This document shows, in pieces, positions 21,889-42,260 of a stretch of 64,000 nucleotides of DNA. The stretch is taken from assembly GCA_027311385.1 (NCBI GenBank), contig DAICZA010000001.1, positions 5,271 through 69,270 of the forward strand, given 5' to 3'. The position numbers and the translations under genes are program-made. The DNA comes from a bacterium (lineage in GTDB: Bacteria > Patescibacteriota > Minisyncoccia > Phycocordibacterales > Phycocordibacteraceae). Numbering within the stretch: position 1 is the first letter of the stretch; every line of letters begins with the position of its first letter. The notes beneath the pieces were generated by a model. That model saw nothing but the letters and a program-made list of their open reading frames with translations, made no database searches and was not told the DNA's origin.

Positions 21889-21994
21889 CCCGTTAGAAGT
21901 CTTACTCATAGTCAAAAGTTATTACCGCGAATGTTTGCGTCGAAAGACCCTCGTTAGGTACTTGCCCTGGCCGCGGACTTCTAACGGGACTCAT
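21886..21994 (-). mobile_element. start-codon palindromic element, MITE-like copy 3 (109 bp) abutting proS start
   Basis: Termini ATGAG|TCCCGTTAGAAGTC ... GACTTCTAACGGGA|TGAG with TSD TGAG. Mini-ORF of about 30 codons ends at TAA 13 nt before the proS ATG. Confidence 0.55.
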
Positions 21995-26967: not shown

Positions 26968-27261
26968 ATGAAATCAATCCGCGACATTCTCCCCGAGTTT
27001 GAGAAAAAAGCGGCGGCGGCACCGAAGGGACGGAAGCGCCAGACCGAGCGCGGCGAGCTGATGCGGTTTTTCCTGCGCCACTTGAACTACTCCCGCAAAC
27101 AGGACGGCCTCCCGCCGATGACGATGGCGCACCTCGGCACCGTGCTGGAGCAAATCCCGACACAGGACTTGTACTATCTGAAAAGCGTCTGCAGTCAGGC
27201 GAAAAACTTCGGCAAAAAGTTCTGGTGGGAACTGGATCCGGCCAAGCACCCGCCGCGCTGA
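26968..27261 (+). CDS. hypothetical protein
   Basis: 97-aa basic ORF. Confidence 0.35.
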   Translation: MKSIRDILPEFEKKAAAAPKGRKRQTERGELMRFFLRHLNYSRKQDGLPPMTMAHLGTVLEQIPTQDLYYLKSVCSQAKNFGKKFWWELDPAKHPPR

Positions 27262-27282
27262 TTTTTTGGTATACTCCGCCAC

Positions 27283-27407
27283 ATGAATCCCGTTAGAGAT
27301 AGCGGGCACGGCTCGCAGGGTCGATTACCTGCCGTTATTACCAATGATAACCTCGATAGGTGTTCGCGGCGTACTTTATACGCTCGTACCCTATCTCTAA
27401 CGGGATG
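27283..27407 (+). mobile_element. start-codon palindromic element, MITE-like copy 4 (125 bp) abutting def start
   Basis: 16-bp perfect terminal inverted repeat ATCCCGTTAGAGATAG/CTATCTCTAACGGGAT with TSD TGAA. 41-codon stop-free mini-ORF (MNPVRDSG...RTLSLTG) ends with TGA overlapping the def ATG (ATGA). Confidence 0.65.
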
Positions 27408-27944
27408 AAAGACATCGTACAAGACGGGGCGGAGGTGTTGCGGGATATCGCGAAGCCGGTGCCGGAGGAGCTGTTCGGCTCCGCGGAACTCGCGACGCTT
27501 ATCGCGGATATGACCAAAGCACTTGATAAGGAGCTTGAGGGCGTCGCGCTCGCCGCGCCGCAGGTTGGTGTGTCCTACCGTCTCTTCATCGTGCGGAAAG
27601 ACCGCACCCTGCCTCCCCCGCCGGAAGCTACGGAAGGTGCCGCGCTACCGCCCCCGCCGCCGCCCGAAGTGGAGGTGTACATCAATCCCGAAATCGTAAA
27701 GACCTCCCGCAAACGCGCCCGCGCCGACGAAGGGTGCCTCTCGGTGCGCGGCGTCTACGGCACGACGAATCGGCACGAACGCGTCACCATCCGCGCACGC
27801 CGCCCGGACGGTTCCCGAATTGAACGCGGCGCCGGCGGCTTGATGGCGCAGATATTTGAGCACGAGATAGACCACTTAAACGGCATTCTCTTCATTGACC
27901 ACGCCGAGCACCTCATCCAGATCCACCATGCCGCAACCGCATAA
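27405..27944 (+). CDS. def: peptide deformylase (with Pro-rich insertion)
   Basis: GVALAAPQVG, EGCLSV, HEIDHLNG motifs; insert TLPPPPEATEGAALPPPPPPEV. Confidence 0.9.
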   Translation: MKDIVQDGAEVLRDIAKPVPEELFGSAELATLIADMTKALDKELEGVALAAPQVGVSYRLFIVRKDRTLPPPPEATEGAALPPPPPPEVEVYINPEIVKTSRKRARADEGCLSVRGVYGTTNRHERVTIRARRPDGSRIERGAGGLMAQIFEHEIDHLNGILFIDHAEHLIQIHHAATA

Positions 27945-29111: not shown

Positions 29112-29232
29112 CCCGTTAGAGGTAGGAAATCGGAGATTTCCGTACGATTATTGATAATGGTTTTCACCCACTGTCACATAGTTTACCACAAGACCTTAAT
29201 TACCCAAGGTTTTGACCTCTAACGGGATTCAT
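29109..29232 (-). mobile_element. start-codon palindromic element, MITE-like copy 5 (124 bp) abutting hpf start
   Basis: Termini ATGAA|TCCCGTTAGAGGT ... ACCTCTAACGGGA|TGAA with TSD TGAA; mini-ORF interrupted by TAA at codon 11 (degenerate copy). Confidence 0.55.
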
Positions 29233-29461: not shown

Positions 29462-29582
29462 CCCGTTAGAGACAGGGTACGGAATCTCCCTGTACGGCCG
29501 TCTTATTCGGCTTCGCACTCGACCTTATGAATATATGCATGGTGTCCATATTACCGTACTCGCTGTCTCTAACGGGAAACAT
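29459..29582 (-). mobile_element. start-codon palindromic element, MITE-like copy 6 (124 bp) between grx stop and DUF167 start
   Basis: Termini ATGTT|TCCCGTTAGAGACAG ... CTGTCTCTAACGGGA|TGTT with TSD TGTT. grx TAA overlaps the mini-ORF ATG (TAATG). 37-codon stop-free mini-ORF ends at TAA 4 nt before the DUF167 ATG. Confidence 0.6.
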
Positions 29583-30953: not shown

Positions 30954-31518
30954 GGTTAAAGTTCAGAACCCGATGGTATACTGCACAGAGTATGCCAAAA
31001 GAAAAAAGAACTTATGCCGATCGTGCCGAGTATTTGCGTAAGGCCGTTTCCGAACGTCGTAAGAAACTTCGTGAAATGGCGCGCGAATACCGGGGCGGGA
31101 AATGTATGATTTGTGGTTACAAACGGTATTCGGGAGCACTTGATTTCCACCATCGAGACCCCACGAAGAAAGACTTTGGTCTTTCTGTGAAGGGACTTAC
31201 GCGATCGTGGGAGAAAATCAAAATAGAGATTGAGAAATGTGCTCTCGTGTGCGCAAACTGTCATCGCGAAATACATGCAGGCATTACGCAGCTTCCTACA
31301 GAAATGTAGACTGAAAACGAGGTGAATTCGGGGAAACCCTAACAGAGGAAATGCTGTGGGCAATCCCGAGCCAAGTCCCGAGAGTAATCAAGGGAAAGGT
31401 GTAGAGACTATCCCGCAAGGGAGTAGACCGAAAGGTCGAAGCGCCTCGCATCCGACATTTACGAAATGTAAAAAGGATGATGATATAGTCCATCCCGCCA
31501 GTAACGGCGGAACAAATG
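30954..31518 (+). ncRNA. group I intron with embedded HNH homing-endonuclease ORF
   Basis: P7-like pairing (AGACTA...TAGTCC) in the 3' core, omega-G, U at 5' splice site; ORF sits in a peripheral loop. Confidence 0.6.
30992..31309 (+). CDS. HNH homing endonuclease (intron-encoded)
   Basis: CMICGY...HHRDP...CANCHREIH: CxxC/HH/CxxCH zinc-finger HNH motif, 105 aa. Confidence 0.8.
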   Translation: MPKEKRTYADRAEYLRKAVSERRKKLREMAREYRGGKCMICGYKRYSGALDFHHRDPTKKDFGLSVKGLTRSWEKIKIEIEKCALVCANCHREIHAGITQLPTEM

Positions 31519-31716
31519 TAACGAGTTGGTCGTAGGTTCGAATCCTACCCGCGGAGCTAGAAACAGTTAGGCCCTAATGCGAAAGCATCGGGGTCTTACT
31601 GTTTCTCTTCGTCGGTAGGATTCGAAGGCCGGAGGCGGACGCGCCGAGGCGGGGTCGCGCAAAATCTCAGCAGAGATTTATGCGCGACCGAGTCCTGCTC
31701 CCGGAGCCGAGTGAGC

Positions 31717-41289: not shown

Positions 41290-41979
41290 CTATTTCCACT
41301 CAATGAGCTTCCCCGCTTTGAGTTCCATAGCATCGGCGCGGCGCACGTAGCGCCAGTTCCCTTTCGGCACGAGGAAATAATGCTTGCGTTCGGCGAGCGC
41401 GTCGGCGACGTTCCAGAGATCCGTCTCGGCGGTGAGCCACGCCGCGCCGATGCGGTCTGCCCCCGACGGGGCGCCGATGCGGTCTGCCCCCGACGGGGCG
41501 CCGATGCGGCGCATATCGAGCGGCTTGGAGTAGCACTCCAGTGTCTTCTCCCGCGTCTCGTTCATAAACCACTCGTGGAAATACGAGAGCGCGAGCTCGC
41601 GCGGCGTCCGGTACACGGGGTCGCGGAAGCGGAGCACGGCGTGATTCGTCTTGCTGATGGCGCCATAGCGCCCGCCGCGCGCATACAGCGCCACGACGTG
41701 GTCCACGTCGCCCTTCCCCATCCGCGACGACAGATTCATGATAATCGGCGGCTCGCCGTGGACCCAGAGCGCGGCGGCGGCAAGCAGAGCGCCCTCAATG
41801 CAGTGCGCCTTCTTCTCGCGCAGGACGCGGCGCGGGGACATATGCGTATCACCGCTCTTCTCCAGATTGAACGGGAGCGTGTCCAGGAAATCCTGAATCT
41901 TCGCCGGCGTAGAGAGCCGCGAGAGCGTCTCATACTCACCGCGATTGAATCCGGATTTGGCGCGAGTGAGATGCTTCAT
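41290..41979 (-). CDS. hypothetical protein (possible Cys/His hydrolase fold) containing a 27-bp tandem repeat
   Basis: Start at the ATG regenerated by element copy 7; KAHCIEGALL...DHVVALY; RIGAPSGAD x2.4. Confidence 0.4.
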   Translation of the reverse strand: MKHLTRAKSGFNRGEYETLSRLSTPAKIQDFLDTLPFNLEKSGDTHMSPRRVLREKKAHCIEGALLAAAALWVHGEPPIIMNLSSRMGKGDVDHVVALYARGGRYGAISKTNHAVLRFRDPVYRTPRELALSYFHEWFMNETREKTLECYSKPLDMRRIGAPSGADRIGAPSGADRIGAAWLTAETDLWNVADALAERKHYFLVPKGNWRYVRRADAMELKAGKLIEWK

Positions 41980-42260
41980 CCCGTTAGAGATAGGAAACGC
42001 TTCAGTCTGTTTTTTAGATATCGTTTCCCCATCCCGGTTTTTAGATACGTCTCCCGAGCCGTTGCGTCGTTTAGATTGCGGCATGCTTCGTAATATACCA
42101 GTTCGTAGGGGCGGTGGCGTTTCGTCCACCCGCGTGGGGCTGTCTGGTGCTGGCTGAAGCGTTTCCGTAAATCATTCGTGACACCGGTGTACCAATAATC
42201 ACTTGTGAGGCTTCTGATGACGTACACATAGCACATGTTGTCATCTCTAACGGGATTCAT
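41976..42260 (-). CDS. GIY-YIG nuclease (UPF0213/YhbQ-like), element-encoded
   Basis: MNPVRDDNMCYVYVIRSLTSDYWYTGVTNDLRKRFSQH...ELVYYEA...; GIY-YIG core with arm-encoded N- and C-terminal extensions (MNPVRDD..., ...FLSLTG). Confidence 0.8.
   Translation of the reverse strand: MNPVRDDNMCYVYVIRSLTSDYWYTGVTNDLRKRFSQHQTAPRGWTKRHRPYELVYYEACRNLNDATARETYLKTGMGKRYLKNRLKRFLSLTG
41977..42260 (-). mobile_element. start-codon palindromic element, full-length copy 7 (284 bp) carrying a GIY-YIG nuclease gene
   Basis: 14-bp perfect terminal inverted repeat ATCCCGTTAGAGAT/ATCTCTAACGGGAT with TSD TGAA. ORF runs from the left ATG to TGA overlapping the host ATG (ATGA). Confidence 0.7.

Follow-up and report, generated by a model that had tools for sequence, protein, structure and literature searches.

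What role does a stop-free frame of 41 codons play immediately in front of a gene for peptide deformylase, when its own stop codon overlaps the start codon of that gene? An initial annotation of the window (the whole stretch of 64,000 nucleotides that was analysed) had proposed that miniature repeat copies carry such mini-ORFs, that the ends of these are engineered for translational coupling to the host gene in all three frames, and that the insertion hijacks host initiation and returns expression by coupling. At def the description of the frame was confirmed by the sequence, as it comprises 41 codons, its TGA overlaps the def ATG as ATGA, and the translation of 27283-27408 on the plus strand reads MNPVRDSGHGSQGRLPAVITNDNLDRCSRRTLYARTLSLTG. 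The features of this locus are as follows.

27267..27275, plus strand: extended -10-like box TGgTATACT, 7 nt before the left ATG; consensus match only
27283..27408, plus strand: mini-ORF of 41 codons, from the left (original host) ATG to the TGA
27284..27287, plus strand: left 4-bp target-site repeat TGAA, by comparison with the empty def sites of relatives
27288..27405, plus strand: miniature element including the terminal T…A; outer arms 27289-27304 and 27389-27404, the terminal A being the A of the def ATG
27366..27388, plus strand: inner hairpin adjoining the right arm, based on folds and on covariation in six full-length copies
27405..27944, plus strand: host gene def (peptide deformylase), Pfam PF01327, E = 1.8e-41
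27406..27409, plus strand: right 4-bp repeat TGAA, the source of the mini-ORF TGA stop

The def site was found empty in 56 of 57 orthologous loci, where it reads ..ccacATGAAAGA.., and these empty sites in relatives indicate that the left ATG is the original host start. The 126-base mini-ORF is thus best read as a very small mobile element that has no gene in this copy and inserts precisely at start codons. We further consider it probable (about 0.7) that 27283-27408 is a non-autonomous, internally deleted copy of an element of ~280 bp with a GIY-YIG nuclease as its only gene. The inner hairpin at 27366..27388 is the putative remnant of the inner stem of that full-length element. The box TGgTATACT was also conserved upstream of the empty def starts in ~50 relatives, and its position suggests that def may be transcribed leaderless.

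Seven copies of the element precede start codons in the window

Seven copies of the element, bounded by CCCGTTAGAG…CTCTAACGGG, were found in the window, six of them miniatures and one full-length. All seven lie directly before the start codon of a host gene, namely those for an ftsI-like PBP, rsmH, proS, def, hpf, yggU and one gene of 229 aa. Besides the def copy these are the following.

12770..12884, minus strand: miniature before the ftsI-like PBP gene; repeat TGCG; mini-ORF 12890-12774, 38 codons, stopped by the arm TAA 4 nt ahead of the host ATG
14125..14202, minus strand: short (78 nt) miniature before rsmH; repeat TGGA; ends C…G; mini-ORF of 28 codons in frame with rsmH
21889..21988, minus strand: miniature (100 nt) before proS; repeat TGAG; mini-ORF stops 16 nt before the host ATG
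29112..29226, minus strand: miniature before hpf; repeat TGAA; mini-ORF stops after 10 codons
29462..29576, minus strand: miniature before the yggU/DUF167 gene; repeat TGTT; mini-ORF 29582-29466, 38 codons, ending at the arm TAA
41980..42254, minus strand: full-length element, 275 nt, before the 229-aa gene
41976..42260, minus strand: GIY-YIG nuclease ORF, 94 aa, Pfam PF01541, E = 5e-16; begins at the ATG taken from the host and ends at the right-repeat TGA, which overlaps the host ATG

Most of the details given earlier for these copies held. The C…G ends of the rsmH copy imply GTG as the host start, with which the in-frame mini-ORF of 28 codons was confirmed. In both the PBP and the yggU copy the mini-ORF ends at the arm TAA, 4 nt short of the host ATG, as had been described, but their lengths, put at 38 and 37 codons, are both 38. 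Of the two copies that had been called degenerate, the one at proS does have a further TAA, 9 nt ahead of the arm TAA, and the one at hpf an early TAA. The upstream junctions were likewise as described: the grx TAA overlaps the left ATG of the yggU copy (TAATG), the mraZ TGA lies 1 nt before the left ATG of the copy downstream of it, and the left ATG of another copy is preceded, at 6 nt, by the TAA of a 93-aa ORF. The 93-aa ORF had been named ftsL and gave no Pfam match. Internally the window copies are only 38-63% identical to one another.

The full-length copy encodes a single-domain GIY-YIG nuclease

The Pfam domain PF01541 spans residues 9-76 of the 94 residues of the nuclease, which has no second domain, and the window contains no other GIY-YIG gene besides 41976-42260. 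A search of NCBIfam with the nuclease gave no family, the nearest solved structure by PDB sequence search was the UPF0213 protein BH0048 (E = 0.0014), and a plasmid search for a link to annotated Ssn genes returned three weak GIY-YIG matches only. We found 3,805 homologues with the pattern MNPVRD…GMGKRYLKNRLKRFLSLTG (also given as MNPVRD…RFLSLTG). Members of the family are 86-95 aa long, and an internal Met near the N-terminus is absent in 46 of 89 of them. One locus in a bacterium of the Candidate Phyla Radiation (CPR) has a neighbourhood of competence-pilus genes. The initial annotation had made no link between the miniatures and a GIY-YIG parent.

In full-length copies the nuclease ORF has neither a start nor a stop codon of its own, and takes both from the target. 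The ATG is made of the host A and the left repeat and the TGA is that of the right repeat, while the last base of the element rebuilds the host ATG or GTG, and the nuclease and the host gene therefore overlap as ATGA. Such an overlap, as ATGA or GTGA, was present in all five independent contexts (the window gene, RuvX, a methyltransferase, Bac_transf and SmpB). The proposed hijack of host initiation with return by coupling is thus, as far as the arrangement of codons tells, right for the full-length element, whose ORF runs in 5/5 contexts from the host ATG to a TGA on the host ATG, and is partly supported for the miniatures. TGA-type repeats flanked 87 of 89 full-length copies as against 60 of 88 miniatures (Fisher 4e-8). 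The termini of the protein, which are encoded by the arms, are conserved at 94-96% versus 73% in the catalytic core. The miniatures retain both stems and have lost the loop encoding the catalytic core.

The hairpin appears to be selected in DNA

The outer stem is formed by Y-CCCGTTAGAnnn and nnnTCTAACGGG-R, and a second, inner stem adjoins the right arm. The 13-bp outer arms covary, at four positions, which points to selection for the hairpin. The terminal bases covary as well (T:A in 72 and C:G in 60 of 139 copies), and the inner stem showed compensatory changes in six full-length copies. The stem is 99% Watson-Crick, with six G:T versus six A:C pairs and no wobble bias, which argues for selection at the DNA level and against an RNA switch. 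The arm TAA was also present in non-CPR copies away from start codons, the hairpin being conserved across phyla, and the TGA comes from the target-site repeat; the ends of the mini-ORFs are hence inherited, and the idea that they are engineered for coupling had to be given up.

The RNA fold computed for 27283-27420 (-54.3 kcal/mol, z = -4.9) has the outer stem pairing the A and U of the def AUG, which bears out the pairing over the host start codon that had been foreseen. Rfam 15, run over the whole window at gathering score, matched only a group I intron and a tRNA elsewhere and nothing on the element, and 27150-27550 gave no Rfam match up to E = 1. The right arm contains no Shine-Dalgarno motif, nor, as read from the sequence, a plausible -10 box at the right distance for an internal host promoter. 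In 29 of 72 copies a -10-like box was present 5-9 nt ahead of the left ATG.

A very stable RNA stem with its foot at the host AUG might also act in RNA, in that RNase III or another double-strand RNase would cut the stem and free a near-leaderless host mRNA, the frame of the mini-ORF being immaterial. The Correia elements of Neisseria have a long stem which is processed by RNase III-type cutting, leaderless starts are apparently frequent in the genomes considered here, and such processing would account for the expression of host genes behind miniatures with an early stop. We hold this explanation to be very unlikely, since the stem shows no G:U bias, the excess of open frames described below would go unexplained, and a cut within the stem gives a short leader with a 5'-monophosphate, not a true leaderless 5' AUG.

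The element inserts at start codons in the orientation of the host gene

In CPR bacteria the element is inserted between the A and the TGNN of start codons, with a flanking 4-bp direct repeat that is perfect in 68 of 88 copies, and the target common to the copies is little more than this junction of A and TG. Of the related loci, 56 had an empty hpf site and 12 a filled one, the latter with two different miniature types, and at yggU we noticed both empty and filled orthologous sites, again with two different miniature types. The presence/absence polymorphism, the 4-bp repeats and the different miniature types at one site together point to ongoing mobility. The polarity of the element follows that of the host gene (32 vs 4, P = 2e-6), and all window copies fit the host-oriented profile far better in the host orientation, on both chromosome strands.

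Terminal inverted repeats, a target-site duplication and empty sites in relatives, as expected of a MITE or an insertion sequence, are thus all present, whereas the full-length partner encodes a GIY-YIG nuclease only and no recognised transposase. We know of no mechanism by which a lone GIY-YIG nuclease would bring about a 4-bp duplication and strand joining. Identical miniatures at several loci of DX4.bin27 were not taken as proof of recent transposition, since their flanks are also alike and a larger repeat is possible. An integron attC site, considered from GTTAGAG/CTCTAAC, was rejected, as neither an array nor an integrase is present, and as the copies lie dispersed at the starts of essential genes and do not match the core GTTRRRY.

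Comparison with known systems

The closest known system is Ssn/NTS (Chenal 2025, Nat Commun, PMC11893778), although its published repeat consensus is not matched here. Ssn proteins are single-domain GIY-YIG nucleases of ~94 aa, a description which also fits the window nuclease, and their hairpin repeats flank the own gene and occur in hundreds of gene-less copies; the authors remarked on an IS-like architecture and hypothesised movement only (PMC11893778). The gene lies between hairpin-forming inverted repeats in Ssn, and between the two halves of one hairpin here. In both systems many gene-less copies are scattered near genes (six within the 64 kb of the window), and on one strand a ..TCAT-like flank stands ahead of the CCCG…CGGG stem of the repeats. 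The published consensus of the SRM (Ssn-related motif), HGTCWY N0-2 YYVSBRH N0-5 WNVSBRG N0-2 RNCYNB (PMC11893778), had 0 matches on both strands of the window versus 0.7 in shuffles. Here, one covarying hairpin is split around the gene together with an inner stem, whereas Ssn has a complete hairpin on each side; the copies occupy start codons precisely, with 4-bp repeats and with empty sites seen in relatives; the ORF takes its start and stop codons from the target; and the hosts are CPR bacteria, which are unmentioned in PMC11893778.

It could be argued that the element is a domesticated system of the Ssn/NTS type, in which the nuclease cuts the hairpin in single-stranded DNA and controls transformation or recombination near certain genes, the position at start codons being incidental and translation irrelevant. 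The resemblance of a ~94-aa single-domain nuclease tied to hairpin repeats with hundreds of gene-less copies (PMC11893778), the DNA-selected appearance of the stem and the competence-pilus neighbourhood mentioned above would agree with it. We nonetheless judge domestication unlikely in view of the ongoing mobility, the dependence of the nuclease ORF on the target for both terminal codons and the lack of SRM matches in the window; it would also leave the strict start-codon placement and the gene-directed polarity unexplained.

Other families share traits with the element, which we read as mobile. IS200/IS605 elements and REP/RAYT are likewise very small, with hairpin ends, strand- and orientation-specific insertion at a short target and abundant gene-less hairpin derivatives, but their transposase is of the HUH Y1 type and their target is not duplicated; membership in IS200/IS605 was rejected, as the element has room for one 94-aa GIY-YIG ORF only and has a 4-bp repeat. 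The MITEs Correia/NEMIS, ERIC and RUP are inverted-repeat elements of 80-150 bp which have short target duplications, adjoin genes, are co-transcribed and form long transcript hairpins, but they are not limited to start codons, do not duplicate an ATG and derive from DDE-type IS elements. Rickettsia palindromic elements (RPEs) are also palindromic mobile repeats tolerated in essential genes through translatability; they are, however, inserted in frame within coding sequence, and the protein incorporates them, whereas the present element stands before the ORF and an in-frame fusion is rare (2/15). The free-standing GIY-YIG homing endonucleases of phages (Seg, I-TevI type) are similarly selfish genes lodged between those of the host, and stop and start codons often overlap there, but they have a DNA-binding domain, one long site and spread at the same locus, as against many unrelated genes, inverted repeats and miniatures here. 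A homing endonuclease gene was rejected on account of the seven different host genes in the window, RuvX, SmpB and others elsewhere, and a target of little beyond the A-TG junction.

Mini-ORFs are open more often than expected

Within the window, 4 of 6 miniatures are open versus 1.43 expected from dinucleotide shuffles (P = 0.025). The wider set consisted of 72 non-redundant miniatures from other genomes, taken from many CPR species, copies from different species not being fully independent samples. The left-ATG frame was stop-free in 28 of these 72 (39%), while the other five frames were open in 9-14 (12-19%) and shuffling gave 9.2 (13%, P<5e-5); the rate of open left-ATG frames is roughly threefold that of the other frames and of shuffles. 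Permutation of frames within elements gave P = 5e-5, and terminations cluster at the host ATG (25 observed, 6.5 expected). On the other hand, in-frame stops were present in 44 of 72 miniatures (61%), and in 32 of the 72 (44%) the stop came over 60 nt ahead of the host ATG, as in the hpf copy and two of its three orthologues. Selection for stop-free mini-ORFs, as initially claimed, thus agrees with the excess over shuffles and other frames but not with the 61% that are closed. Contrary to what had been stated, no particular reading frame is preserved, since orthologous miniatures differ by 1-2 nt in length and the frame shifts between them. Similarly, the in-frame fusion said to arise in the third frame is nearly never open (2/15).

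These data bear on whether the mini-ORFs are simply decaying relics of the nuclease ORF, with host genes translated independently and the excess due to young copies and not to selection. The 5' part of the miniatures is colinear with nuclease codons 1-30, and the copy at 27289 reads ..VITNDNL.. where the parent nuclease has ..GVTNDLR..; the outcome is bimodal, miniatures being either fully open or stopped early; host genes behind the closed miniatures are intact; and miniatures of n mod 3 = 2, the class which needs TGA, showed no enrichment of TGA-type repeats (P = 0.76). Against this, no similarity to the nuclease could be detected in the miniature peptides with its profile (best E = 0.11), which together with the divergent window interiors makes the copies old, yet 39% are open, at a mean interior GC of ~37% (a 62-copy set overlapping the 72), versus the 13% from shuffling. 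Of the two halves, the 3' one next to the host ATG also showed the stronger excess (P = 2e-4, versus P = 0.047 for the 5' half with its coding ancestry), and the excess tracks the frame actually translated and not the ancestral C-terminal frame. Relics alone are hence a possible but doubtful explanation, although part of the excess could be inherited from the ancestral reading frame, given the colinear 5' part.

A model for insertion and its implications

Under the reading that we prefer, ribosomes, often on leaderless mRNA, would initiate at the ATG that the host gene had before insertion, translate across the element and terminate on the rebuilt host ATG or within a few bases of it. The latter lies at the base of the stem and lacks a Shine-Dalgarno sequence, and termination-reinitiation would then yield the host protein. 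Insertions before needed genes would be purged once an early stop arises, which would leave the threefold excess of open frames that was observed. If the Ssn family is a guide, movement would probably involve an action of the nuclease on single-stranded DNA folded into the hairpin. Tentatively, and at somewhat less than even odds, these elements may form a new class of minimal transposon widespread in CPR/Patescibacteria: a ~280-bp hairpin with an Ssn-like GIY-YIG nuclease as sole product, specific for start codons, which gets start and stop from the 4-bp duplication, is rendered harmless through termination-reinitiation and gives rise to miniatures kept translatable by selection. Our search of the literature for a GIY-YIG element with a target duplication, or in CPR bacteria, returned only the Ssn paper and unrelated work, and the insertion strategy seems to be undescribed.

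If true, it would be a third way to hide in essential genes, by hijacking and then returning translation, the known routes being RNA splicing and protein splicing; such a "translationally transparent" insertion would be comparable in logic to inteins and introns. The empty sites and target repeats would be the first genomic evidence that Ssn-type GIY-YIG/hairpin elements move. The element would account for thousands of "GIY-YIG nuclease" and "excinuclease ABC subunit C" annotations in CPR genomes, and host genes preceded by a duplicated ATG flag systematic errors in start-codon annotation. The nuclease-hairpin pairs are candidates for new specificities in the cutting of single-stranded DNA. 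Organisms that are not yet culturable alone would furthermore offer, in this arrangement, a natural system in which to study reinitiation and leaderless translation.

Copies of the element at start codons

The feature at 27283-27408 is a reading frame of 41 codons whose TGA overlaps the ATG of def (an identity backed by a Pfam match) within ATGA, just as the initial annotation had described it, and beneath it lies an element bounded by CCCGTTAGAGATAG … CTATCTCTAACGGG. Using arm searches and a profile search over the whole window, we found seven copies of this hairpin-bounded element and no further ones, six of them miniatures, which lack the nuclease gene, and one full length.

Element copies in the window and their host genes
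12770-12884, minus strand: miniature, 115 nt, host ftsI-like PBP
14125-14202, minus strand: miniature, 78 nt, host rsmH
21889-21988, minus strand: miniature, 100 nt, host proS
27289-27404, plus strand: miniature, 116 nt, host def
29112-29226, minus strand: miniature, 115 nt, host hpf
29462-29576, minus strand: miniature, 115 nt, host yggU/DUF167
41980-42254, minus strand: full-length copy, 275 nt, host an unknown 229-aa gene

A start codon lies immediately 3' of the element in 7/7 copies, and a second ATG (the left ATG, the original host start, which opens the mini-ORF) is located six bases upstream of the left arm. The reading frames, premature stops and upstream gene junctions of the miniatures had been reported correctly, the codon count of the last one being 38 and not 37. 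RNA folding of the def copy predicted a structure of -54.3 kcal/mol (z = -4.9) in which the A and U of the def AUG are base-paired within the outer stem, as had been anticipated. A lone arm-like CGCTAACGGG (gene orientation; 12893-12902 in plus-strand coordinates) was noticed at the copy at 12770-12884, 2 nt before its left ATG, where it includes the TAA stop of an upstream 93-aa ORF; it may be left over from an older element or have arisen by chance, about four one-mismatch 10-mers being expected per window.

Among miniatures still holding the asymmetric right-end motif, 32 have this motif adjoining the host ATG and 4 have it at the opposite end (P = 2e-6). With a host-oriented profile each window copy scored many orders of magnitude better in the host orientation, on the plus strand at def and, only 2 kb away, on the minus strand at hpf and yggU; the polarity is therefore set by the gene and not by the chromosome strand.

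Insertion site and pairing of the arms

To compare empty and filled sites we fetched 80 metagenomic loci with relatives of the neighbouring fmt gene. The def start was empty in 56 of the 57 usable loci; the empty site reads …TATAgTtcgccacATGAAAGAAATC and the window …ccacATGAA-T[CCCG…CGGG]A-TGAAAGAC. Of the hpf starts, 12 were filled and 56 empty, the same site being taken by two unrelated miniature types. At yggU, 6 loci had a filled start and 46 an empty one; here too there were two types, and the repeats were TGTT or TGTA. The occurrence of orthologous starts in both states indicates that the element enters at A|TGNN with a 4-bp direct repeat, which is perfect in 68/88 copies. Just outside CCCG/CGGG the bases are T…A in 72 and C…G in 60 of 139 copies, and this terminal pair is Watson-Crick in 134 against 68 expected if the ends were independent. 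By this pairing the flanking base is itself part of the element, so that the base which ends the element also opens the rebuilt host start codon (ATG or GTG). Arm positions 10-12 covary likewise, which argues that the arms are selected for pairing and not solely for a protein-binding consensus. The stem is 99% Watson-Crick with 6 G:T versus 6 A:C mismatches, and this points to stem selection acting on DNA.

Two miniatures stand head to tail before one gene (…CGGG ATGAAT CCCG…) at the loci L035 (5899-6278) and L038 (7674-7895), and evidently a rebuilt ATGNN can be targeted anew. The MAG DX4.bin27 (L017, L024, L108) carries four 92-nt copies with 100% identical interiors and flanks also alike; these may lie within a larger repeat and so may not be independent insertions.

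The parent element encodes a GIY-YIG nuclease

The 275-nt copy has an unbroken 94-codon ORF that begins at the upstream ATG and whose TGA stop overlaps the host ATG; its product is a GIY-YIG nuclease domain (Pfam PF01541, E = 5e-16). Among 5.8 billion proteins searched there were 3,805 relatives, and the best 120 of these are nearly all of 94-95 aa (MNPVRD … GMGKRYLKNRLKRFLSLTG), or else of 86 aa where called from an internal Met. Since 46 of the 89 relatives beginning M-x-PV have no Met near the N-terminus, the upstream ATG is the sole possible start for these. The overlap between the nuclease gene and the next gene is four bases in 5/5 independent genomic contexts (the window gene, RuvX, a methyltransferase, a Bac_transf gene and SmpB). 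The repeat starts with TGA in 87/89 full-length copies versus 60/88 miniatures (Fisher 4e-8), which fits the nuclease needing TGA as its stop codon.

The arm-encoded termini of the nuclease are conserved at 94% and 96%, versus 73% for the catalytic core, and arm changes are compensatory even when the protein is altered (e.g. PVRG…LPLTG for PVRD…LSLTG), as a dual constraint on protein and DNA would predict. Full-length copies have a second, inner stem in which LRKRF(S/N) codons pair with (R)LKRFL codons, with compensatory changes among six such copies. The miniatures retain the outer stem and a short-looped inner stem; the loop of ~165 nt, encoding the rest of the enzyme, is gone.

Proposed start-codon hijack and translational coupling

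The initial annotation had proposed an insertion that hijacks the host initiation site and returns expression by coupling, and the hijack fits our observations. Upstream of the left ATG of miniatures an SD motif is rare (13/72) but a -10-like box 5-9 nt away is frequent (29/72), and this box is also present in each of the five full-length contexts and in the conserved def promoter; the right arm has no SD motif, and the host AUG sits in the foot of the predicted stem. The original initiation site would now serve the element, and ribosomes reading through it would then reach the host ORF. For the full-length element such hijack with read-through seems, from its anatomy, close to demonstrated. 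The coupling claim stands in outline for the parent, and for the miniatures it is partly supported, by frame statistics.

Boxes of the type TAnnnT, often TGnTATAnT, were seen 7-9 nt before starts in the window (27267-27282), at def in L131-L209 and in the full-length contexts L125, L211, L213 and L217, and the box is conserved across ~50 def orthologues. Leaderless mRNAs thus seem common in these Kaiserbacteria-like genomes, and many targets of the element seem to be leaderless starts.

We examined 72 non-redundant miniatures that are preceded by a start codon at -6 and followed by a host ORF. The left-ATG frame is stop-free through the interior in 28 (39%) and the other five frames in 9-14; composition-matched shuffles gave 9.2 (P<5e-5), and permuting frame labels within each element gave P = 5e-5. 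In the window alone 4/6 miniatures are open, with 1.43 expected (P = 0.025). Openness is hence above chance, contrary to the outcome that the initial annotation had named as refuting its claim, and the mini-ORFs are a real and non-random observation. Of the two halves of the element, the one closer to the host ATG gave the stronger signal (P = 2e-4; 5' half, P = 0.047), and first stops are bimodal, 25 lying within 9 nt of or overlapping the host ATG (6.5 expected) and 32 more than 60 nt upstream (40.7 expected).

On the other side, 61% of these miniatures are interrupted by stops. In the hpf copy, as in two of three orthologues of it, the frame ends after ~10 codons, and hpf is still intact; orthologous miniatures of 77, 78 and 79 nt represent three different frames; miniatures whose frame needs ATGA for a stop have no ATGA excess; and the peptides of the miniatures have nothing in common beyond the arm-encoded ends. 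The open frames could be an inheritance of the ancestral reading frame. The frame statistics nevertheless support what would be selection against early stops in a subset of miniatures. The claim that the ends are engineered for all three frames was overstated: the hairpin is conserved across phyla, and its right-arm TAA is complementary to TTA in the left arm; the TGA comes from the target repeat; and in-frame fusions to the host are open in only 2/15.

Distribution and relation to known systems

A pattern scan of species-representative genomes gave at least 120 loci. Among the matches listed are Saccharibacteria, Paceibacterota, Kaiser-, Nomura-, Wolfebacteria and many other groups of the Candidate Phyla Radiation (CPR), and also Omnitrophota, Desulfobacterota, Planctomycetota and others. 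CPR flanks in these matches are ATGNN…RTGNN, and 77/150 copies adjoin an ORF of at least 50 codons; non-CPR flanks are mostly GTAAAC…GTAAA, with copies, some of 90-120 nt, intergenic or at stop codons. Omnitrophota, Desulfobacterota and Planctomycetota have short 27-29-nt versions of the same hairpin (L079 3406-3434, L080 3725-3752, L090 6560-6586, L099 6015-6041, L111 1263-1290), and an Omnitrophota full-length copy (L110 6920-7198) carries an SD and an ATG of its own and extends beyond the arm. The arm sequence, TAA included, is therefore older than the start-codon habit or independent of it.

Further features were also noticed. At 31222-31552 (plus strand) a group I intron matching Rfam RF00028 (79 bits) directly precedes a tRNA 3' half (GGTCGTAGGTTCGAATCCTACCCGCGGAGCTA), and around 31238-31285 there is coding sequence for an HNH-like motif (CALVCANCHREIHAG); the arrangement resembles a tRNA gene interrupted by an intron that has a homing-endonuclease ORF, and ARAGORN called no tRNA there. 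More distant small GIY-YIG genes in CPR (L007 ~1941 and L035 ~5457, both minus strand) lie between directly duplicated stretches of tRNA-like sequence, e.g. GGGCCCATAGCTCATCCGGTAGA on both sides, which suggests a second GIY-YIG element type targeting tRNA genes.

Literature searches found no account of an element of this kind. The present element lacks a defining feature of each of these: IS200/IS605, DDE-derived MITEs, homing endonuclease genes, introns and known RNA families. The nearest described system is the Ssn family of ~94-aa single-domain GIY-YIG nucleases, which bind NTS/SRM hairpin repeats in single-stranded DNA and cut beside them; these repeats bracket ssn genes, and the authors remarked on their IS-like look, mobility not being shown (Chenal et al. 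2025, PMC11893778). By analogy the present element would work like Ssn. It differs, however, in that the two halves of its hairpin enclose the gene, the window contains no match to the published SRM consensus, it has target repeats and empty sites, and it resides at start codons in CPR bacteria, which that paper does not mention. The feature at 27283-27408 is a miniature copy of a GIY-YIG hairpin element whose insertion sites are start codons, and this element appears to be an undescribed variant of Ssn-type nuclease/hairpin systems.
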